Source of the DNA: a bacterium
Lineage (GTDB): Bacteria; Patescibacteriota; Minisyncoccia; JBBINA01
Reading direction: 5' to 3'
Length of the DNA stretch: 63,698 bases
Assembly (NCBI GenBank): GCA_037444125.1
Contig: JBBINA010000005.1
Span: 1-63,698 of the forward strand
Shown here: piece by piece, positions 53,693-63,698 of the stretch
Layout of the letters: each line of letters opens with the position of its first letter
Position numbering within the stretch: position 1 is the first letter of the stretch
Made by a program: the position numbers and the translations under genes
The notes under the pieces: model-generated
Seen by the model: the letters and a program-made list of their open reading frames with translations, nothing else
The model's database searches: none
What the model was told of the DNA's origin: nothing

Positions 53693-54787
53693 TTATTGAC
53701 ACAAAAGCATTCTGGCTTCATTTTCTGCTTTCTTGTTAAGAGGGCTATATCGGGTAAAACCTGTTTCAACCGGCACTTGATTATACTGAGCCACAAAAAT
53801 ACTGTATCCTTTGATAAAGTCTCTTACGTTCCATACTAAACGTAATGCTTGATAGGCCCGGTATTGTTCTTCTTCGTCTTCTTCGGTGGCTAAAAGAAAA
53901 TTCCAAGGATATATGGCTGTTTCGTCTTTACTTTGATAGCCGGTTTCCCAAAATATAATTGGTTTATTGTATTTATGATAGAACTTGGTTATATCATTGA
54001 CAATATTTTGATTATGCCGGTCCTTAAACCAACCGTTAATCAATTGATATGTTAGGGCTTCAGAATTGTCTGTGATTTCAAAATATGAATTAAGGCCAAT
54101 GTAATCTACGCTGTCCCACGGAAAATTATCACGTGCGCGCTTATAATTCTTTTCATTCCACCACCAGTTGGTTTGATAGCTAATTTTGCCACTAAAGACT
54201 TGTTTCACTGATGAGATTAAGTTATTCCATAAATCTTTGTATTCCGGTTTTTCCATTGAAATAAGTTCGGCTCCAACTAAAAATACATTGACTATACCTG
54301 ACTCTTGTGCTATTTGAGCAAAGTACAATAAGGAATTTTTGTAGTTATCAAACCATAAAGCCGGGTTTGACGGTTGTATTTCTCCTGCCCAAGGCGCCAT
54401 TTTCTCATAATTTTCTGGATCTACCAAAAGCGTCGGCAAAATATCAATTTTAAGATTGTATTTGCGCGCTACTTTGAATATTGTTTGAAGAACCTCTTTT
54501 GAGACGGTGCGTTTGTCAATATGTGGTTCGTTTGAAGCAAGATTTTCCTGGTAAATATTAACTGGGATTAAAAGCCGATTTAAACACTGTAATTTTGTAA
54601 CCAAAATTCTGATTTCCTTATTGATTTGCTCTTCGTTGCCACTGCCATAGTTCCAAAATTCATAATCAGCATAGCGGATGCTCCTTGCTTCTAGAGTAGC
54701 TAATGTCGCGGCGGTAAATTTAAAACTAAAAACTGACAAAGTCAGGACGACGAGCGCAACTGCATAGAATTTCCGCTTAAGTTTCAT
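53693..54787 (-). CDS. Secreted GH113-like (clan A TIM-barrel) glycoside hydrolase
   Basis: Signal peptide; WFDNYK, VGAELISME (acid/base Glu), DSVDYIGLNSYF and IIFWETGY (nucleophile Glu); AAGGAGG RBS. Confidence 0.75.
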   Translation of the reverse strand: MKLKRKFYAVALVVLTLSVFSFKFTAATLATLEARSIRYADYEFWNYGSGNEEQINKEIRILVTKLQCLNRLLIPVNIYQENLASNEPHIDKRTVSKEVLQTIFKVARKYNLKIDILPTLLVDPENYEKMAPWAGEIQPSNPALWFDNYKNSLLYFAQIAQESGIVNVFLVGAELISMEKPEYKDLWNNLISSVKQVFSGKISYQTNWWWNEKNYKRARDNFPWDSVDYIGLNSYFEITDNSEALTYQLINGWFKDRHNQNIVNDITKFYHKYNKPIIFWETGYQSKDETAIYPWNFLLATEEDEEEQYRAYQALRLVWNVRDFIKGYSIFVAQYNQVPVETGFTRYSPLNKKAENEARMLLCQ

Positions 54788-54793
54788 TTTTTT

Positions 54794-56146
54794 TCAACCT
54801 CCTTGGTAAGTTGATGGGGCAGGAATAGCGCTATAACGTTCAGTTTTAGCCCAGACAACGTTTTCATTTCTTAATTCCGAAAGACAACCTTTTAAAACCG
54901 GCCAAAACCAATGGTAGCTGTAGAAAGGAGTTAATAAGCCTACCAATATTGTTTCTTTTAATGTATAACCGCCAGTTTTCATACCTACAAAGACTAAGGG
55001 TAAAAAACTAAAAGAATTTAACAACATTAGCCAGTAAGGAAAACTATTTTGAATATATACATCAAAATATTTTCCTAAGAAAATAAGCGGTAAACCAATA
55101 ATAATGGTTGCGCCTACTATAATTGGTATTGTCCAGAAAGTCAAGTAATAAAAGATTGTCACTTTTTTGGAAAAGGACATTGGACTAGAGTAGAATTCAG
55201 GATTTAAGATAAACTGTCTAAATGCTTGAATTGTTCCGCGCGCCCATCTTTTGCGCTGTCTAAAAAGTGCCTTTATTGTTTCTACACCTTCTTGAAAAAC
55301 TGCATAATTGGAAAAGCCGATTTTTGCTCCAAGCATATGGAGTCTAATTGAAATATCCAGATCTTCTGTTAGTGCGTTTTTATGCCAGAAATAACCGTTT
55401 TTTTTATAAAGTTCTAATAATTTTTTGAAGGTTATAAACTGGGCATTGCCTCCAAGAAACACAGTGCCGTCTAAATATTCTCTTACCCTTTGAACTAGTT
55501 TGGAAAATGCCAGAAATTCAGTGTCTTGAAATTTGGTTAACATAAGATGGTTATTTTTTATTCGGACAGCGCATTGTACAGCGTCGCAATTTTCTTCATT
55601 GAACTTACGCAATACATCAACGAATAATTCTGAACTGTATTCAGCGTCTGCGTCAGAAACACCTATAACCCAGTTTTTTGGTTGTCGCCATAGCAAGAAA
55701 TTTCTTAAAAATTTCGCCCCTTCATTTAGCGTTTCAGCTTTGCCTTTGCGCGAATTACTACCCTTTCTTTCGACTAAATGTATTTTTTGCGGAAATTCAG
55801 ACATTAAAGCTTTGATTATTCTATCAGTGCCATCAGTGCTATTGTCATTGATAATCAATATATCGCATTCAATATTTAATTTTTTATCGCTAGTTGATTT
55901 CAAGATTGACCTTACAGTGTTTTTTAAAACTTTTTGTTCATTGTAAGCCGGTATCATCATTGTAAGATGAGTAATTTTTCTTTCTTTAGTGCTGAATTCA
56001 ATTTTTTTATCTACTTTTCCTTTAATTAACTGTTTTAGTCTTATGAAGTTGTAAACAGCTATGATAAATAAATTTGGAATCGTACAATAAACAATAAAAA
56101 ACCAAGTCAACCAATCAGTTGAAATAATCATAAAATAGTCCTCCAT
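54794..56146 (-). CDS. Processive GT2 glycosyltransferase (cellulose-synthase-like); alternative start 56131
   Basis: PAYNE, NDNSTD, GKA, DAD, TED and QRKRW (D,D,D,QxxRW); one N-terminal and several C-terminal TM helices. Confidence 0.88.
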   Translation of the reverse strand: MEDYFMIISTDWLTWFFIVYCTIPNLFIIAVYNFIRLKQLIKGKVDKKIEFSTKERKITHLTMMIPAYNEQKVLKNTVRSILKSTSDKKLNIECDILIINDNSTDGTDRIIKALMSEFPQKIHLVERKGSNSRKGKAETLNEGAKFLRNFLLWRQPKNWVIGVSDADAEYSSELFVDVLRKFNEENCDAVQCAVRIKNNHLMLTKFQDTEFLAFSKLVQRVREYLDGTVFLGGNAQFITFKKLLELYKKNGYFWHKNALTEDLDISIRLHMLGAKIGFSNYAVFQEGVETIKALFRQRKRWARGTIQAFRQFILNPEFYSSPMSFSKKVTIFYYLTFWTIPIIVGATIIIGLPLIFLGKYFDVYIQNSFPYWLMLLNSFSFLPLVFVGMKTGGYTLKETILVGLLTPFYSYHWFWPVLKGCLSELRNENVVWAKTERYSAIPAPSTYQGG

Positions 56147-56388: not shown

Positions 56389-56413
56389 AAGCTCCGGTTT
56401 AAAGCCGGAGCTT
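56389..56413. terminator. Bidirectional terminator between tRNA-His and the PKD gene
   Basis: AAGCTCCGGTTT / AAAGCCGGAGCTT inverted repeat. Confidence 0.7.
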
Positions 56414-56421
56414 GATTGAAC

Positions 56422-56862
56422 TTATCGTACATAACCATAAATCATCGCTACAATTAAAACCGCGGCGATACTAAGAATTAACACTATTTGAACTGAAGGA
56501 TCGATTTTGGAAAAATCAATTGTATGAACGACTACTGTTGACGGCACCATAATCCATCTTTCAACGATTAGATATTCAATACCTGAATATGTAACCGCCT
56601 TTACCATCACATAATATTGACCAGGCGCGGGATAAACATGCGGTAAGCGAAGTTCGCGAGTTCTTTTAATAGTTCCATCTCCAAAATGCCATATGTATTC
56701 TTTGACTTCATAAAAAACTTGGGTTTGTCGAATTTCAAACCAAATTGTATTTGAACCTGATGCGTGCCAAAACAAACTAGTTTGTGTTTGCGAAAAGCCT
56801 TCTTTGTTGGGTGTAATAAGTATACTCGCTACAGCTATGACTAGCCATAACAAATTTTTCAT
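56422..56862 (-). CDS. Single-PKD-domain surface protein with a C-terminal TM helix
   Basis: YIWHFGDG...HVYPAPGQYYV; signal peptide; C-terminal hydrophobic helix; AAGGAG RBS. Confidence 0.85.
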   Translation of the reverse strand: MKNLLWLVIAVASILITPNKEGFSQTQTSLFWHASGSNTIWFEIRQTQVFYEVKEYIWHFGDGTIKRTRELRLPHVYPAPGQYYVMVKAVTYSGIEYLIVERWIMVPSTVVVHTIDFSKIDPSVQIVLILSIAAVLIVAMIYGYVR

Positions 56863-56876
56863 CTGAAATCATCTCC

Positions 56877-57623
56877 TTAAAAACATAAAGGTCCATATGG
56901 CGCGATATTACAGCTAAACGCTACCATAAATTTTATGATAGCAATTATTAGAACTATTCCAGAATGTTGCTCAATTTGCCACTTTACATTAATAACTTTT
57001 GCTGTTTCGTGACAGCGGTTATCTATTGTGCAAGAGCGTAAAAAAACTCGATAAATTCCGCTTTCTTTATAGCGATGATTTACTTGTTCGCCCGCACGTA
57101 TGTAAGATTGAATGCCGTCACCAAAATCCCAAATATAATAGGCTGGTTGCGATGCGATAATTTGGGGTTTAAAAATAATATTGTAACTCCTTGATTCTTG
57201 CTGGGCTGAAAAATTTACCAATGGACCTGGTCTTTGCGTTTCGTCATAAACCATTAAAGCATAAATTGCTTCAGCTGTTCGATTTTCTTTATCAACAACA
57301 CGTAGTCTTACTTTAACAAGTCCTATCGATTTAAAAACCCATGTGCCAAATGGAAAATCTGTTATTTGGTCGGTGCTGCCGTTATTGTCGTAATCCCAGT
57401 AATAATATCGTATTTCTCCCTTTGAACTGCGGGCGTCAAAAACAATCTGTTCGCCTTTTATAATTTTGAAAGGACTATGAGTAAAATAAGCGATAGGAGC
57501 TTTTGTAGGTCGGCTTCTTTGCGTTTGGGCAAAAATTATCGTACTATTGTCAATTAACAAAATCGTTAAGACAAATAGAAAAAGCGAAACCCATATCTTC
57601 CCAAATTGGTTTTTTTTTAACAT
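56877..57623 (-). CDS. Two-PKD-domain surface protein
   Basis: FDARSSKG..YYWDYDNNG and YIWDFGDG...HRYKESGIYRV. Confidence 0.85.
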   Translation of the reverse strand: MLKKNQFGKIWVSLFLFVLTILLIDNSTIIFAQTQRSRPTKAPIAYFTHSPFKIIKGEQIVFDARSSKGEIRYYYWDYDNNGSTDQITDFPFGTWVFKSIGLVKVRLRVVDKENRTAEAIYALMVYDETQRPGPLVNFSAQQESRSYNIIFKPQIIASQPAYYIWDFGDGIQSYIRAGEQVNHRYKESGIYRVFLRSCTIDNRCHETAKVINVKWQIEQHSGIVLIIAIIKFMVAFSCNIAPYGPLCF

Positions 57624-57691: not shown

Positions 57692-59023
57692 TTATTGGGC
57701 CTGAGTGGTTGTGTTCGTGATGTTTGAGTTTTCTAATGTTGGTTGTGAAGTAGTTGGGGCTTTAAGGGTTTCATTAACGATCGCTTCATTAAGGGTTTCC
57801 GTTGATGTTGCTTGTTCCGGCATTGATTCTTCAGGAGAGCTGGTGATATTATTTAATTCGGTTTCTGATTTATTTGGTTCAATATAGCGGGTAGGCAGAT
57901 TATGATTAATAATCCAGTAATCAAAATTAAGCACCTTAACGCCATCATGGCTAAAACTGATTTCAAAGCCTTCTCCTTCTACTCTTTTTGATATCCACCA
58001 ATTTGACATTGGGTCATTTAAAAAAGTAATAAAAATAATTGAATTTTCCTTTACAAAGGGTTCGCGTATAAATAGAGCGTTTGAGTCAAGTAATGTTTCT
58101 ATGTGTCCTGTTATTTGATTTTTTAATTGCGTATTGGAAGTTTCAATAGAATTGGTTGCTGTGCTAACGGCCTCATTATTAAAAAAAGTTGAAGTTGCAA
58201 GTTGGTTTTCAACAAGTTTCTCATTTAACTTATCAATTTTTTCATTAAGTTTAATAAGTTCAGCTAGGATAGTTTTAATTTCGGTAAAAATGGCACTTAT
58301 TTTGTTTATTAAATAAACAAATAAGTTTTTTATACTTGACCAAAAACCTTCATTTTGCTCTGGGGTGCTGGTGGCTTGGAGGCTTGAGTTTAATAAATTC
58401 ATTTTCATTTCCTCGGCCGCAGCTTTTAAAGAGTCATTTTGTAAAGGTTCGGTTTTTAATTCTTGGAGCACTTTTTTTAAATCATCAGTATCAAAAACGA
58501 GAATAGCATTAGTGGCATTACTTAAAAAATTATGCTTGAGAAGTTCGGTAATTAAATTATCTTCTTCTTTAATTTTTTGCTCCTGCATAAATTTTTCCAA
58601 AGTAATAATCCTACGGCGAGGAATCATTTCTTGGTCCCAGTTTAGTTCATCAGTCAAACCGCCTACTGAAAGTGTGAGATAATAGTCTTTTGCATTAAAA
58701 TCAAAGTTTATTTTATTGTATCGTCCCAAAATAACTTGAAAATAGCCATCGGTTCCAACTTTGACTTTATGGAGGCCAACAAACATCTCTTGCCAAACCA
58801 AATTGCCGCCAAGTTCTTCATCATATATGAGAAATTTAAAATTATATTTTCCGGCTGGCAGTAAATTTCCCTTGTTATCAGTCAAAGTTCCTTTAAATAA
58901 AATTCTTAAAGACTGGCTTTCTTTTTTAAAATCAACTTGCGCCTTGGTTATAGATATTGTCAAAAATAATAAAAATAAGAATAAGAAAACAAAGACTATT
59001 AACTTTTTATTTAATTTCGCCAT
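57692..59023 (-). CDS. Secreted protein with the terminal domains typical of CPR giant surface proteins but no large passenger region
   Basis: FKGTLTDNKG...YNFKFLIYD...GG..VWQE...GYFQVILG at the N-terminus; coiled coil; IFITF...WWISKR...FEISF...FDYWII near the C-terminus. Confidence 0.6.
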   Translation of the reverse strand: MAKLNKKLIVFVFLFLFLLFLTISITKAQVDFKKESQSLRILFKGTLTDNKGNLLPAGKYNFKFLIYDEELGGNLVWQEMFVGLHKVKVGTDGYFQVILGRYNKINFDFNAKDYYLTLSVGGLTDELNWDQEMIPRRRIITLEKFMQEQKIKEEDNLITELLKHNFLSNATNAILVFDTDDLKKVLQELKTEPLQNDSLKAAAEEMKMNLLNSSLQATSTPEQNEGFWSSIKNLFVYLINKISAIFTEIKTILAELIKLNEKIDKLNEKLVENQLATSTFFNNEAVSTATNSIETSNTQLKNQITGHIETLLDSNALFIREPFVKENSIIFITFLNDPMSNWWISKRVEGEGFEISFSHDGVKVLNFDYWIINHNLPTRYIEPNKSETELNNITSSPEESMPEQATSTETLNEAIVNETLKAPTTSQPTLENSNITNTTTQAQ

Positions 59024-60719
59024 CTGTCAATTTTGATTTATAGCTTCTTTTGTAAATTAAATATAAAAGCGTTATTAAGAGAGAAATTAACAGAATTAAA
59101 TTTATAACCACCAAAATATTATCTGGATCCTGATACCAATAAATATAGGTAATGCCGATTTCAATATTTTTATTAATAACCCGGTCTACTACTTCAAATG
59201 GTTCAGTTTCGTATTTTTCATTTGTAGGCTGATTAACTGCTTCAAGATAGTAAATTCCAGCAGGAACCATAAAGCCATATTCGCCTCTTTCGTTGGTAAA
59301 TTGAGGATTTTTTTGGTCATAATTATAGCCAGGCCACATTTCAAAAATATTTTTATTTTTGTTTTTATGATAAAGAGTTATTTTGGCGCTTGAAACCTTT
59401 TCTTCTTCAAATTTTTCTTGAAGCGATATAATAGTTAATTTTTTAAATAAGGCTATTTTCTGACGAATTATCCGGCGATAAACATAACCATAAGGATCAA
59501 TAAGAATTTCACCCACTTCAACTAGATCAACGGAGCCATCTTTATAGATAATCATTAATTTTATGTTATATTTTCCTCCGGCAAATAGAGGCGTTTTAAA
59601 ATCTACTATGTAATTTCGGTTAGAATTTTCATATCTAAATAAATGTTCTTCAAGGTTAGCAAATGAAAAGATAATTTGAGTCGGTTGTTTCTTAAAATTC
59701 TGCTTGTTTAAGGTTATCTTAACTTGTTGGTTGGGAAAATAATGGATTCTCAATTTCTTTAATTTCTGCACTTTTGGCGCTTCGCCAAGTTCAAGCCTTA
59801 ATTCACCGTTTTTTATGTCAACTTGAGCATTGTTAAGTAATAACTTTTCTGTTTCTTTGACCGACACTTTTAGTTCTTCACCCATTCGTTTAATTGGTTT
59901 TAAATTATCAATGATATCATAGGAAGGAAAAATTATTTTTAAAATTGTGCCGCTTGAAACATTACCACTTGTATCAACACTGAATAATGTGTAATAAAAA
60001 GTTTCGCCTTGAATAATATCTTCGTCAATAAAACTTTCGTTGGTGCCTTCGTAAATTTTTCTGCCGGAAAAAGGACTTGTTGGAGGCTCTCTTGTGTCTT
60101 TTAGCAAAATAACATTACTAAAATCGCTATCTATTGGGTTTGACCAAAATAAATAAATACCTAAACCTTTTATTTCAGCGGTAAAATTTGAAGGATTGGC
60201 TGGAGGTTCGTTGTCTTGCTTAGAGAGTGTGCGAAAATTAAAAACTTGCGAAGTTATTCTATTGCCTTGATTGTCTTTTGCGACTATTTGATAGTAATAG
60301 AGAGTATCTTCTTTTAAGTTTTGAAGGCTAAAGATATGTTCATTTTGGAACGAATTATCCCATATAGTTTTATCGAAGTCATATGAAAAGCCGTAATTTA
60401 ACTCGCCAAAACTATTCTTATTAGTCGTAAATTTTATTTTTAAAAAATTTGCTCCAATTTCAAGCACTTCAATATTAATAATCACAAAGGGTTGTTGTTG
60501 ATTAATCATTATTCCTTGTCCGCCATTTCCTTGTATTAAAGGCGTTGTTGTTGATTCAGGAGGCGTGCTGGTTGTGGTTGTGCTGATAACTTGCGCAGTA
60601 ATAACCAACTCCTGAGTTGAAGTTGCGGCTACTGCATTTATTTTTTTAGTGAACAGAAGGACACCTACAGTTATTATCCAAAAGAGTAAAAAAAAAATTA
60701 CTAAAGAAAAGTTTTTCAT
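59007..60719 (-). CDS. Surface protein: two Fn3-like domains, carboxypeptidase-regulatory-like domain, C-terminal TM helix
   Basis: NLKEDTLYYYQIVAKD, PPANPSNFTA...YYTLFSVD and NPQFTNERGEYGFMVPAGIYYLE; TM LVVINLILLISLLITLLYL. Confidence 0.78.
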   Translation of the reverse strand: MKNFSLVIFFLLFWIITVGVLLFTKKINAVAATSTQELVITAQVISTTTTSTPPESTTTPLIQGNGGQGIMINQQQPFVIINIEVLEIGANFLKIKFTTNKNSFGELNYGFSYDFDKTIWDNSFQNEHIFSLQNLKEDTLYYYQIVAKDNQGNRITSQVFNFRTLSKQDNEPPANPSNFTAEIKGLGIYLFWSNPIDSDFSNVILLKDTREPPTSPFSGRKIYEGTNESFIDEDIIQGETFYYTLFSVDTSGNVSSGTILKIIFPSYDIIDNLKPIKRMGEELKVSVKETEKLLLNNAQVDIKNGELRLELGEAPKVQKLKKLRIHYFPNQQVKITLNKQNFKKQPTQIIFSFANLEEHLFRYENSNRNYIVDFKTPLFAGGKYNIKLMIIYKDGSVDLVEVGEILIDPYGYVYRRIIRQKIALFKKLTIISLQEKFEEEKVSSAKITLYHKNKNKNIFEMWPGYNYDQKNPQFTNERGEYGFMVPAGIYYLEAVNQPTNEKYETEPFEVVDRVINKNIEIGITYIYWYQDPDNILVVINLILLISLLITLLYLIYKRSYKSKLTDGEIK

Positions 60720-61723
60720 TGCACATTATTTATTTTATTTAAGTGCCGATTTATTATCCATTGATTGTATCGCTTGATGCCAATAAATCCTAATATAATC
60801 AGCAAAATAATTATTATTGCGCTTGTTAGTAAAAGCTCCCAGGGTAATACCCAAAATGTTAGCATATCGTTAGCCTGTTTGCCGTTTGAGCCGTATTCAA
60901 GGGTTAAGTAAGCTGAATATCTACCTAAAGCAAAATTGTGTCTTTCATATTCAAGCCATTCAAAAAAGTTTTTTGGTTGTTGATTTTGAATTTTTGAATT
61001 TTGATTTGCCTGCCAAGCGACATTATATTTTCTAATTGAACCTCGTAAAATATTACCTTTAAGGGGATTAGCTTGAAATAATATAGTTGTCCGTCCAAGT
61101 AAGTTTTTTATTTCAATACTTCCTTGAGGTTTTAAATGAACATTACCAGAATTTTCAAACCTCCAGTAAAAATTAATAGGTCGCGCTTTATATAATTTTT
61201 TATTCTGAAACAAACCAAATTCAAGAAGCCTACCCTCTTCTTTTATATCGCCAGCAACTTTTATTAAAACTAGTGCGCCAATTTTGCCGCTAATAGAAAC
61301 ACCGCTTCCGCCAACATCACTTGGTGGTTGTGTGCCTAAAAATATGCCGCCGTAATGTCCTCCGGCTGAAGCAGTTTCAGGAATTTTTATTTCAATGGGT
61401 ATTTCTTTGCGTTCGCCCGGTTGAAACTCAATTGGTTGATTATTTAAAATAAACCATGAAGCCATTTCGCCTTCTTCAGTTGTCTCATAAAAAAAAGGTT
61501 CGCCTCGCTCTTCTTCTTTAGCCTTAAAATTCATTGTTGATAAATAATAAGAGCCAAGTGAACTTGATTCATTAAAAACTTTGAGCGTGATTATTAATTT
61601 ATCGCCGGGATTGCCTTGAAGTTCAAAAACAGGCGGTGAAATAGTAAGAGCATAACTTCTAAGAGGCAGCGTAAAAATAAATAAAAGTGCCCAGAATGCA
61701 AATTTTCTAAACATAACAATCAA
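60716..61723 (-). CDS. DUF916/DUF3324-like (WxL-interacting, CscA-like) membrane-anchored protein
   Basis: ISPPVFEL...PG...VFN, PETASAGGHYGGI, FENSGNVHLKPQGSIEIKN and GRYSAYLTLEYG; C-terminal TM helix. Confidence 0.75.
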   Translation of the reverse strand: MIVMFRKFAFWALLFIFTLPLRSYALTISPPVFELQGNPGDKLIITLKVFNESSSLGSYYLSTMNFKAKEEERGEPFFYETTEEGEMASWFILNNQPIEFQPGERKEIPIEIKIPETASAGGHYGGIFLGTQPPSDVGGSGVSISGKIGALVLIKVAGDIKEEGRLLEFGLFQNKKLYKARPINFYWRFENSGNVHLKPQGSIEIKNLLGRTTILFQANPLKGNILRGSIRKYNVAWQANQNSKIQNQQPKNFFEWLEYERHNFALGRYSAYLTLEYGSNGKQANDMLTFWVLPWELLLTSAIIIILLIILGFIGIKRYNQWIINRHLNKINNVQ

Positions 61724-61777
61724 GTTTTTAAATATTCAAAAATTCAAATTAGTTTTTCGCTATTGCTATTACTTTTA

Positions 61778-62815
61778 TTAGAATGTTCCTGTTGATATTA
61801 AGGTAACAGTATGGCTATAGCTTCCTGAAGGCGTTGTGCCGTTAATTGAAGCCGCAAAGCACAAAGTAACTGCATCTGTAATTGGCCCAGTTGCTCCGGC
61901 AAAGGTTTGTGCTGTTCCGGTAATTGCTGTGGCTGGGTTGCCATCGCATACACCTGTTTCTTGAGCTATTGTCTGGCCTGAGTCACTTGTTGATACTCCA
62001 TATTCTTCTGAGCCAGCAGTAACTATGCCGTCGCTAACATCATTTATATCGTTTCCGTCGAACCTTAAATTGCCGTCTTCAAGTATAGTTGCCGAATATC
62101 CGCCGGCCGCGTTAGTTGTTGTAGTAGCGACAATTGTAGTTGTTGCTACTGCTGAGACAGATAAGGTGCCAAGGTTAGCGCTACTTGCCGAAACAGTAAA
62201 AGTGATGGTTGGATCAACGGTTGCCGAAATGGTTACTTGATCTGGGCTAGTAATAGCCACAGCTAATTGGCCTGAATCTCTTACAGTTGAACAAGTCGCC
62301 GGATCGTCAGTGCAGGTTTTAACTGTAATAATCTTTGAACCGCTACTGCTAGGATTAGTTATCTTGTCGTTGATGATAGTTACAGTGCTAGTCGCATTAG
62401 CTAATGAGGCGCCTGTGCATAATTTTAAAGAAATATAAGAGGTTGTTGTGGCTAAATAAAATTGGTTAGATGCAGAACAGGCCGATGTGCTTGTGCCGGT
62501 GAAGGAAGTTGTTCCATCGGTCATAGTAACATCGTCGAAAGTAAGATTTGCATAGGTAAACCCAGAGTCTAGCTCAAGTCTTACTCCTCCGCCAGCCGGA
62601 GTGGTTTGCGTGGGCACAAATTGTATTGTATGGTTAGAGGTTGCGCTTGTTTGTAATCTAGTCATTGTGTCTTTAAGATTGCTTAAATTTCCTGCATCTA
62701 TCTCGAAAATCGGGGGTAGATATATAGATAATAAAGAAATTGTTAAAATTATAGTTGTCAATTTTCGGCTAAATGAACTAAATGATTTTAATTTATTATA
62801 AATTCTCATCCTCAT
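61778..62815 (-). CDS. Secreted T/S-rich protein with a C-terminal WxL-like domain
   Basis: DQVTISATVDPTITF, NLGTL, TNAAGGY, EEYG and AASINGTTPSGSYSHTVTLISTGTF. Confidence 0.7.
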   Translation of the reverse strand: MRMRIYNKLKSFSSFSRKLTTIILTISLLSIYLPPIFEIDAGNLSNLKDTMTRLQTSATSNHTIQFVPTQTTPAGGGVRLELDSGFTYANLTFDDVTMTDGTTSFTGTSTSACSASNQFYLATTTSYISLKLCTGASLANATSTVTIINDKITNPSSSGSKIITVKTCTDDPATCSTVRDSGQLAVAITSPDQVTISATVDPTITFTVSASSANLGTLSVSAVATTTIVATTTTNAAGGYSATILEDGNLRFDGNDINDVSDGIVTAGSEEYGVSTSDSGQTIAQETGVCDGNPATAITGTAQTFAGATGPITDAVTLCFAASINGTTPSGSYSHTVTLISTGTF

Positions 62816-62955
62816 ATTTATTTTTTAATATTTAATAATTAATTTATATTTTATATTATATCGAAATATTTTATTTTAAAATTTTACTTATCTATAATAA
62901 AATTGCAATATAATAAATTGTGGATAACTTTTAGAGGCCGCACCTGCAAAAAATT

Positions 62956-63698
62956 TCAATAGGTGCTGGTGATAATAAATGTTAGGGTGGTAGAATAAAC
63001 GCCAATTTCAGTTGAATTAGAGATATTGGCCATATAACAAATAGTAAAGGTAGTCGCGGCAGAGGGTTCTAAAGCTGAGGCAATAGTATTGCCAGAAACA
63101 AACTTAAATTGATTGGCGGTTCCGTATTCAGAGGCAGCCGTGCCTGAACCGCCTGAAGGATTGGCGCCGCAGGCAGGCGAAGTATTAGCCACAAGGTTAA
63201 TGCCGAATTGCTCGGTTCCGGGGTTAGACCCTGTTGGAGTTGAAAGTGCGTTTATAGTATAAGAAGGGTTTACGGTATGAGTAAGAGTATTGCCTGAAAT
63301 GGTAATAATATAACCTGAAGCTCCGTTTGTGGAAGCTGACATTGTCATTGTAGAAGTTGAGACTGAAAGTGTCGATAAGGTCCCAAGGTTAATAGCGTTT
63401 GTACTTAAGGAAAAAGAAATCGAAGGCGTAATGGTAAAACCGTCAGAGCTTACATAATTAGACGCGGTATTTGCGTTGTTATATGCTCGTACTTGAAAAT
63501 AATAAACCAAATTTGGAACTAAAGTCAAACCACTTAAAGTTGTGGAAGTAGAAGTAGTAAAAAAAGTGAAGCTTGAAGCTTGCCAAGAAGCGCCATTCCA
63601 GAAATAATTATCAGACTGCCTCCTGAAAGAATATTCATAAGTATTAGTTTGGCGAAGGCTAGATTCTGCATCAGAAAATCCTGACCAATTAGCCGAAG
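62956..63698 (-). CDS. 3' part of a surface protein: Fn3-like domain plus C-terminal WxL-like domain; starts outside the window
   Basis: Frame open to the window edge (SANWSGFSDAESS...YYFQVRAYN); NLGTL, TNGASGY, EQFGINL and YMANISNSTEIGVYSTTLTFIITSTY. Confidence 0.72.
   Translation of the reverse strand, partial: SANWSGFSDAESSLRQTNTYEYSFRRQSDNYFWNGASWQASSFTFFTTSTSTTLSGLTLVPNLVYYFQVRAYNNANTASNYVSSDGFTITPSISFSLSTNAINLGTLSTLSVSTSTMTMSASTNGASGYIITISGNTLTHTVNPSYTINALSTPTGSNPGTEQFGINLVANTSPACGANPSGGSGTAASEYGTANQFKFVSGNTIASALEPSAATTFTICYMANISNSTEIGVYSTTLTFIITSTY

Follow-up and report, generated by a model that had tools for sequence, protein, structure and literature searches.

A compact locus of a candidate phyla radiation bacterium, probably encoding a Pam-type pilus, and the WxLIP homology of its chaperone

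The 63,698-nucleotide stretch of DNA analysed here (hereafter the window: positions 1 to 63,698 of contig JBBINA010000005.1, assembly GCA_037444125.1) comes from a bacterium of the candidate phyla radiation (CPR; Patescibacteriota, Minisyncoccia) and ends in a gene cluster with four open reading frames (ORFs) on the minus strand at its core. Read from upstream to downstream, these are ORF-A (62956..63696), which is open at the window end with 246 amino acids (aa) visible and probably codes for a tip subunit or adhesin; ORF-B (61778..62815, 345 aa), coding for a predicted shaft pilin; ORF-C (60716..61723, 335 aa), coding for a membrane-anchored two-domain protein that is a homologue of the WxLIP proteins and a putative chaperone of the PamC/D type; and ORF-D (59007..60719, 570 aa), coding for a candidate terminator and anchor resembling PamR. 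Together they are the parts expected of a Pam pilus, and it is with this system that we compare them.

The Pam system was recently described in a preprint on the filaments of Ca. Mycosynbacter amalyticus, in which PamA and PamB were identified by electron cryo-microscopy (cryo-EM) (10.64898/2026.03.03.709456). According to this study a Pam pilin is built from a β-sandwich N-terminal domain, a linker strand and a truncated immunoglobulin (Ig) C-terminal domain, whose groove is filled by the linker of the neighbouring subunit, i.e. by donor-strand exchange, and conservation among the pilins is greatest in the linker and the C-terminal strands. The same work describes PamT, which has the C-terminal domain only and is the proposed tip; PamC and PamD, FimC/PapD-like chaperones with a C-terminal transmembrane (TM) helix; and PamR, the proposed terminator and anchor, an FnIII protein similar to RbmA that has an additional strand at its N-terminus and a TM helix at its C-terminus. 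The Pam operon has no usher (10.64898/2026.03.03.709456).

The subunits, the chaperone and the anchor

The visible part of ORF-A and the product of ORF-B align over 167 residues at their C-termini with 34% identity (BLASTP, E=1e-12), and the alignment contains the motifs P[ST]I[ST]F, NLGTL, TN[AG]..GY, E[EQ][YF]G, YSxT[VL]T and a C-terminal T[FY]. A sequence-only reading of this DNA had already pointed to two secreted proteins with a common C-terminal domain, and every motif that it listed is found in the alignment. By sequence comparison this shared domain is identified as the acceptor domain of the Pam pilins: the NCBIfam model NF058581 (CPR_Pam_pilin_C, "Pam pilus system pilin subunit") matches ORF-A with 149.9 bits against a cut-off of 55. 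In Pfam no family covers ORF-A or ORF-B, and a match to the WxL family PF13731 is absent at E<=1. The matches in the PDB that were retrieved by sequence with ORF-A, ORF-B and the acceptor profile (picornavirus VP2, ubiquitin and phage gp11) were set aside as chance, the copy of the PDB that was searched evidently lacking the PamA/B entries 25PZ and 25QA.

ORF-B displays the complete pilin build. Its signal peptide (62693..62815) is followed by an N-terminal β-sandwich (62249..62692), a candidate donor (linker) strand SPDQVTISATVDPT (62207..62248, residues 190-203) and the truncated Ig-like acceptor domain (61781..62206), which is delimited by BLASTP, NF058581, the family alignment and the AlphaFold2 (AF2) model. 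In this model (predicted local distance difference test, pLDDT, 92.4) residues 45-189 form ten strands and residues 204-345 a β domain, with the linker SPDQVTISATVDPT between them left as an unpaired coil in the monomer. Across 44 homologues of ORF-B conservation peaks in the block DQVTVSATVDPTITF and the C-terminal strands; no block is better conserved than the linker DQVTVSATVDP, with D192, A198, T199, V200 and P202 invariant or nearly so. The six cysteines (113/133, 168/175 and 290/319) would allow three disulfides. A Foldseek search with the full-length model was unspecific, recovering generic proteins with two Ig domains (integrins, MSCRAMMs, FimH, FocH, CfaE, CsuE and RbmA) at TM-scores of 0.2-0.27. 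As modelled, with a β-sandwich, a conserved linker serving as putative donor strand and an acceptor domain, ORF-B is a pilin that matches the Pam build.

In ORF-A the acceptor domain recognized by NF058581 (about 62959..63435) retains the cysteine pair that lies within the C-terminal domain and is preceded by an Fn3-like stretch, for which the evidence is weak (contactin Fn3, E 0.17). No donor-strand motif was found ahead of this domain, the best score with a position-specific scoring matrix (PSSM) of the donor strand being -4.1. At the domain junction, SNYVSSDGF-TITPSISF can be aligned with the S.NY....GF pattern that PamT-like proteins of about 230 aa from other CPR genomes have at this point. 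These sequence features suggest that ORF-A is probably the tip subunit or adhesin, of the PamT type but with a large, partly Fn3-like N-terminal extension. The window (63572-63698) and two close relatives of the locus, L001 (1-853) and L002 (1-848), all break off within the ORF-A gene, at nearly the same point. The final 127 bases of the window are covered by a 222-nt Logan unitig (word depth about 50x), which continues for another 95 bases. This suggests that the ORF-A gene carries an assembly-breaking repeat or a strain-variable region.

The product of ORF-C comprises a signal peptide (residues 1-25), a DUF916-like domain (61244..61648), a DUF3324-like domain (60845..61243) and a TM helix (60776..60835); the database gene call begins three codons later, at an ATG at 61714, and gives 332 aa. 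Its AF2 model (pLDDT 92; predicted TM-score, pTM, 0.82) consists of two β domains and a C-terminal helix. By itself the protein scores 19.8 bits with Pfam PF06030 (DUF916/WxLIP_PGBD), below the cut-off of 27.3, and the same model matches 42 of the 58 members of the ORF-C family; some CPR homologues are already named "DUF916 domain-containing protein" by NCBI. HMMER found no match to PF11797 (DUF3324) in ORF-C and none to the PapD families (PF00345/PF02753) in ORF-C or its family, and no NCBIfam model matches ORF-C or ORF-D. The best sequence match of the ORF-C family profile in the PDB is EfmWxLIP1 of E. faecium, and hhalign aligns the family with Firmicute WxLIP, represented by eight proteins from Firmicute plasmids, at a Prob of 98.2% (E 4.3e-14) over 264 columns that span both domains and the TM helix. 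The top three Foldseek matches of the model are all WxLIP (9i1y_A, 1.6e-11; 9i25_C, 2.2e-11; 9i1y_B, 1.6e-10), with RbmA fourth and the chaperone-usher chaperones CfaA and CsuC lower down at TM-scores of 0.48-0.52. Because the profile alignment, the PF06030 matches of the family, the PDB profile match and the structural matches agree, ORF-C, and by extension the family of Pam chaperones, is a WxLIP homologue of the architecture DUF916+DUF3324+TM helix, which bears out the anchored DUF916/DUF3324-like protein of the sequence-only reading.

The Pam preprint makes no mention of WxL, DUF916 or DUF3324 (10.64898/2026.03.03.709456), and among the papers searched none was found to connect Pam chaperones with WxLIP. 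One detail of the alignment bears on how the chaperone might work. A disordered hairpin of WxLIP was predicted with AF2 to turn into a strand that completes the WxL sandwich (PMC10599100, Hassan et al. 2023), and hhalign places this segment on residues 131-150 of ORF-C (61274..61333), the sole low-confidence stretch in its first domain (pLDDT about 70). By analogy, this flexible hairpin is the candidate strand that ORF-C would lend to the subunit groove. WxLIP has been crystallised in complex with a long WxL protein (PDB 9i25).

ORF-D begins with a signal peptide, directly after which lies the donor-like strand QELVITAQV (60588..60614, residues 36-44), and continues with a spacer rich in S, T and P, an Fn3 region with weak Fn3 matches (59925..60497), further β domains and a C-terminal hydrophobic TM helix (59052..59117, residues 535-556). 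When scanned with the PSSM of the pilin strand, QELVITAQV is the best 9-mer in the entire 570-aa protein. Counterparts of this strand occur in L001 and L002 (EQLIITAEV and EQLTISAQV), and a 227-aa anchored Ig-domain protein of the Woykebacteria locus L004 has a mature N-terminus, AQDVDVGATVD, that copies the pilin strand. The library search with ORF-D was flooded by Fn3 repeats of giant proteins and left about ten usable full-length relatives; at 30-35% identity these carry strands such as VETIQVEAEV, SDIVNVSALV and DDQINVTASVP right after the signal peptide, and all of them have a C-terminal TM helix. Compared with PamR by architecture, ORF-D may be seen as a PamR-like terminator and anchor, in agreement with the anchored Fn3 protein with a lone N-terminal strand that had been noticed earlier.

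Related loci and the case for a strand-exchanged pilus

Relatives of ORF-C were located by scanning species-representative genomes with an alignment of 17 ORF-C family sequences, which returned 414 places, and the best 80 of these (L016-L095) were analysed as loci. They belong to CPR metagenome-assembled genomes (MAGs), a few with implausible labels. Genes with the Pam acceptor domain are present at 76 of the 80 loci, nearly always directly upstream of the chaperone gene and on the same strand. A donor strand above the 99th background percentile was detected in 48 of the 76 chaperone-adjacent acceptor genes versus 9 of the 56 located further upstream, from which it follows that the order tip, shaft, chaperone is conserved. 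The further-upstream acceptor genes encode either PamT-like proteins of about 230 aa or giants of 1350-1815 aa. On the downstream side, 12 of 63 proteins with a signal peptide have a donor-like mature N-terminus above the 99th percentile (e.g. DQVIVTATV and QQVTVTATV), where about 0.6 would be expected. The succession of tip, shaft, chaperone and anchor is thus a conserved design.

Within this family L001 and L002, which share 71-80% identity with the locus, retain the entire gene order from ORF-A to the GH113 gene, and the more distant L004 (Woykebacteria) and L006 retain a core in which a small protein resembling PamT is joined by a pilin (about 350 aa) and by an anchored DUF916-like protein (about 330 aa); in L004 the 227-aa anchored Ig-domain protein comes next. 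At two loci the NCBIfam thresholds for Pam are passed, by the pilin domain in L087 (162 bits) and by PamT in L090 (274 bits, cut-off 240); because both loci contain ORF-C homologues, the ORF-C family belongs with bona fide pam operons. The window derives from a subsurface metagenome, and all named homologues are from Patescibacteria/CPR, the nearest named relatives (40-46% identity) being from Woykebacteria, Minisyncoccales and Saccharibacteria. The chaperone family extends over Paceibacteria/Parcubacteria, Peregrinibacteria, the ABY1 groups (Uhr-, Falkow-, Kerfeld- and Kuenenbacteria), Microgenomatia and Saccharimonadia, including Kaiserbacteria, Woykebacteria and Saccharibacteria. This exceeds the Saccharimonadia/Microgenomatia distribution reported from the pilin-based survey of the preprint (10.64898/2026.03.03.709456). 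Since the chaperone family occurs at 414 places, with the best 80 spanning many CPR groups, Pam-type pili are probably far more widespread in the CPR than that survey indicated, and Pam loci are better searched for with the chaperone than with the pilins.

Several features of the 80 loci deserve separate mention. Two or three chaperone paralogues are present at many of them. Giants of 1350-1815 aa with a C-terminal Pam acceptor domain and without a donor strand are encoded directly upstream of the shaft pilin, i.e. in the PamT position, in L029, L032, L035, L037, L042, L043, L045, L049 and L058; these are probably large tip adhesins, analogous to the 'large WxL proteins'. Downstream of the chaperone some loci encode large proteins with an N-terminal pilin motif, L..VSDT.SR....A.NH...F (L028:8101-10380, L031:8078-10354, L054:5618-8056, L062:4031-6268 and L041:7964-13276). 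The acceptor-domain hidden Markov model (HMM) has no match in these five proteins, and they are possibly pilin-domain fusions. Some of the cluster-bearing records, one of them an 886-kb chromosome, are titled 'uncultured Gammaproteobacteria bacterium' or 'Pirellulales bacterium' (L026, L031, L032, L038, L041, L044, L047, L048, L053, L057 and others), titles that are probably wrong for what are CPR genomes.

We consider it very likely that the cluster in the window encodes a Pam-type pilus, that is, an usher-free, chaperone-assisted surface filament of CPR bacteria assembled by donor-strand exchange. A strand-exchanged filament, which the sequence-only reading had raised as a possibility, thereby becomes the best reading, as the shared domain is the Pam acceptor and exchange in Pam has been seen by cryo-EM. 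The system itself is not new: it has already been described, and the locus is one of its members, compact and distantly related. It is placed on a distant branch because the scores of ORF-B and at the PamT level fall below the NCBIfam cut-offs. It represents a minimal four-part version (one tip, one shaft pilin, one chaperone and one anchor) from a subsurface CPR lineage without a close genome representative.

The roles of ORF-A, ORF-C and ORF-D and the order of assembly can be envisaged as follows, with the geometry of strand exchange borrowed from the cryo-EM of PamA and PamB. All subunits would be exported by Sec, ORF-C remaining in the membrane via its C-terminal helix. With its first, DUF916-like domain ORF-C would lend a strand to the open C-terminal groove of ORF-A and ORF-B and so keep both folded. 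Because it has the acceptor domain and lacks a donor strand, ORF-A would start the fibre as its tip, and its Fn3-containing N-terminal part would be the probable adhesin. Copies of ORF-B would then join one by one, the incoming linker DQVTISATV taking the place of the chaperone strand in the preceding subunit. ORF-D, which has a donor-like N-terminal strand and lacks an acceptor domain, would plug the last ORF-B, end growth and hold the fibre at the membrane via its own C-terminal helix.

Certain observations weigh against this reading. ORF-B reaches only 29 bits (E=9.7e-7) with NF058581, under the cut-off of 55, and ORF-A only 138.8 bits with the PamT equivalog NF058579, under the cut-off of 240. 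The window includes neither the N-terminus of ORF-A nor anything upstream of it, for which reason the tip assignment is less certain. In this lineage filaments have so far not been observed. The PSSM score of QELVITAQV corresponds to the 91.5th background percentile, which makes the likeness to DQVTISATV noted in the sequence-only reading marginal when taken alone; it becomes convincing only because the related loci show a conserved and enriched strand.

The homology of ORF-C with WxLIP could also be accommodated by a non-filamentous surface complex of the WxL/Csc type, in which ORF-C permanently holds ORF-A and ORF-B by strand complementation and no polymer is made. A stable complex of WxLIP and WxL has been both predicted (PMC10599100) and crystallised (9i25), and the layout, with a small or large subunit and an anchored partner, is alike. 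However, ORF-B combines a conserved donor strand with an acceptor domain, which is the polymerising combination in PamA and PamB, and a donor-like strand without an acceptor domain, as in ORF-D, would be purposeless in a 1:1 complex; we hence hold such a static arrangement to be unlikely. Much less credible is a chance neighbourhood of unrelated secreted adhesins or cell-envelope proteins that happen to carry a common CPR surface module. The shared domain is indeed covered by no Pfam family, and Fn3 and PKD surface proteins abound in CPR genomes, but the genes overlap, NCBIfam curates a Pam model for the domain, and the synteny, with acceptor genes adjoining the DUF916-like gene at 76 of the 80 loci in fixed order and on the same strand, strongly disfavours it. 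The least probable of all is a pilus built by a sortase or one of type IV. Pili of these two types are known from monoderm or CPR bacteria, and the Pam preprint cites type IV pili in Saccharibacteria (10.64898/2026.03.03.709456), yet the subunits here are all-β with ordinary Sec signal peptides, and no sortase, LPXTG motif, class III (prepilin) signal peptide or ATPase/platform gene was found in 53.7-63.7 kb of the window.

Downstream genes and candidate transcription signals

The string of co-directional genes on the minus strand extends across 53.7-63.7 kb of the window. The start of ORF-D and the stop of ORF-C overlap by 4 nt, and ORF-D and the following ORF-E (57692..59023, 443 aa) overlap by 17 nt, suggesting co-translation of ORF-C, ORF-D and ORF-E and placing ORF-E probably in one operon with ORF-D. 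The product of ORF-E is secreted, has a coiled coil at its centre and ends in a tail rich in S and T; its position is conserved in L001 and L002. Its N- and C-terminal modules weakly match the two termini of a 1645-aa protein encoded next to the Pam cluster in L006 (E 0.047 and 0.004, respectively), and it may be the 'tail fibre-like' neighbour named in the Pam preprint; a PHROGs search returned no match for ORF-E or ORF-A.

Two small proteins with PKD matches in Pfam and hydrophobic C-terminal tails follow (56877..57623 and 56422..56862, both minus strand), and after them a strong terminator-like hairpin (56389..56413, minus strand) with a 9-bp stem, 6 GC pairs and a T-rich tail likely marks the end of the transcription unit. 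Beyond it are a tRNA and the genes for a GT2 glycosyltransferase and a GH113 hydrolase (53693-56146), whose order is kept in L001 and L002. A link of the latter two genes to pilus glycosylation is possible, a modified serine having been seen on PamA. ORF-A and ORF-B are separated by an AT-rich spacer of 140 nt with promoter-like hexamers on the minus strand (TTGCAA-16-TAAAAT at 62881..62908, 9/12 matches), which are a consensus match only, the whole region not being enriched over shuffles. Between ORF-B and ORF-C no RNA structure was detected (z = 0.58).

Relationships to known strand-complemented assemblies

With the Pam system of M. amalyticus the locus shares the acceptor domain recognized by NCBIfam, the build of the pilin, including three cysteine pairs as in PamB, a membrane-anchored two-domain chaperone (set here against PamC/D by description), an anchor with an N-terminal strand, Fn3 and a TM helix, the absence of an usher, none being found among the ORFs of the visible cluster, and a CPR host. 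It differs in having one shaft pilin and one chaperone, whereas the described system has three pilins (PamA/B/E) and two chaperones; in the 570 aa and extra domains of ORF-D, as opposed to the two FnIII domains of PamR; in the large N-terminal extension of the putative tip ORF-A, PamT being a single-domain protein; and in being followed by ORF-E, the PKD proteins and GT2/GH113 rather than by ATP-synthase genes. What is added here to that system is the WxLIP homology of its chaperone and its wider distribution in the CPR.

The chaperone-usher pili (Fim/Pap, the archaic Csu and the class 5 CFA/I) are similar in their use of donor-strand complementation and exchange and of incomplete Ig-like subunits. 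The ORF-C model superposes on CfaA and CsuC with a TM-score of about 0.5, and the structures matched by the fold of ORF-B include two-domain tip adhesins (FimH, FocH, CfaE and CsuE). In contrast to these pili, the chaperone would here be tethered to the cytoplasmic membrane, there is neither an usher in the visible cluster nor an outer membrane, the candidate donor strand lies internally, between the two domains of the pilin, and no match to the PapD or fimbrial families of Pfam is seen. Further polymers that are strand-complemented and need no usher, on cells that lack an outer membrane, are the TasA/TapA fibres, archaeal threads and bundling pili. To our knowledge these lack a WxLIP-type chaperone; no sequence or family match to them was obtained here, no comparison having been aimed at them.

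The comparison with the WxL/Csc clusters of Firmicutes gives a divided picture. The homology between ORF-C and WxLIP extends across the two domains and the helix, both systems pair a small and a large subunit having a common C-terminal domain with an anchored partner, and the partner of each is predicted to complete the subunit sandwich with a strand of its own. The subunits are a different matter. The sequence-only reading had called the shared domain WxL-like while remarking that the literal WxL motif is lacking; the latter is correct, in that the shared domain has no W-x-L motifs and the matching positions read GY.T and T.IS, but the former is not supported, as PF13731 has no match and hhalign between the shared domain and the WxL domain gives a Prob of 1.5% (26 vs 11 sequences) or 0.2% (123 vs 130, trimmed). 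The only aligned piece (TN..GY.TTI in Pam vs D.RG..GW.L.V in WxL) is suggestive to the eye and not significant, and the WxL chain 9i25_A is outside the top 50 Foldseek matches of the two-domain ORF-B model. Assignment of the subunit domain to the WxL family is accordingly unsupported, even though the two kinds of cluster run visibly in parallel, and the CPR assembly itself already bears the name Pam. Beyond the lack of detectable WxL similarity in the subunit domain, the putative donor strand is here the inter-domain linker as opposed to an N-terminal segment, ORF-D is anchored by a TM helix rather than being an LPXTG/sortase substrate, and the host is a CPR bacterium.

The Firmicute clusters display a comparable sharing of strands. 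In 114 of 120 Firmicute WxL proteins a strand motif, EYxSNGxIxF, is found right after the signal peptide (median position 34), succeeded by a Pro-rich linker and then the WxL domain. In five clusters a small LPXTG protein encoded just upstream, with WxL genes adjacent, starts with the same strand (QYKSNGEVSFYGEY, EYKSSGQVGFFGEY, AYDSNGVTSFFGVY; e.g. YKSNGEVSF), followed by a Pro- or acid-rich spacer (L008:2179-2547, L014:3456-3806, L096:4598-4921, L097:5600-6004 and L098:4880-5224). This follows the logic by which ORF-D/PamR copies the donor strand of the pilin, and from such sequence patterns WxL clusters, too, may assemble by strand exchange with a sortase-anchored terminator.

On this basis we tentatively entertain, as a proposal that is somewhat more likely to be wrong than right, that Pam pili and the Firmicute WxL/Csc systems are two branches of one ancient monoderm, usher-free donor-strand-exchange system with a membrane-anchored WxLIP-type chaperone. 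If this were true, short fibres joined by strand exchange would be the product of the WxL clusters, for which the mode of assembly has been unclear since 2006, and the small LPXTG protein would be their sortase-anchored terminator, in the way that ORF-D/PamR would act via a TM helix. WxL surface-protein clusters have been implicated in adhesion and virulence. The WxLIP homology of the chaperone ties a structurally solved CPR filament to the WxL clusters of enterococci, listeriae and lactobacilli, and this tie yields a testable model for the assembly of the latter.

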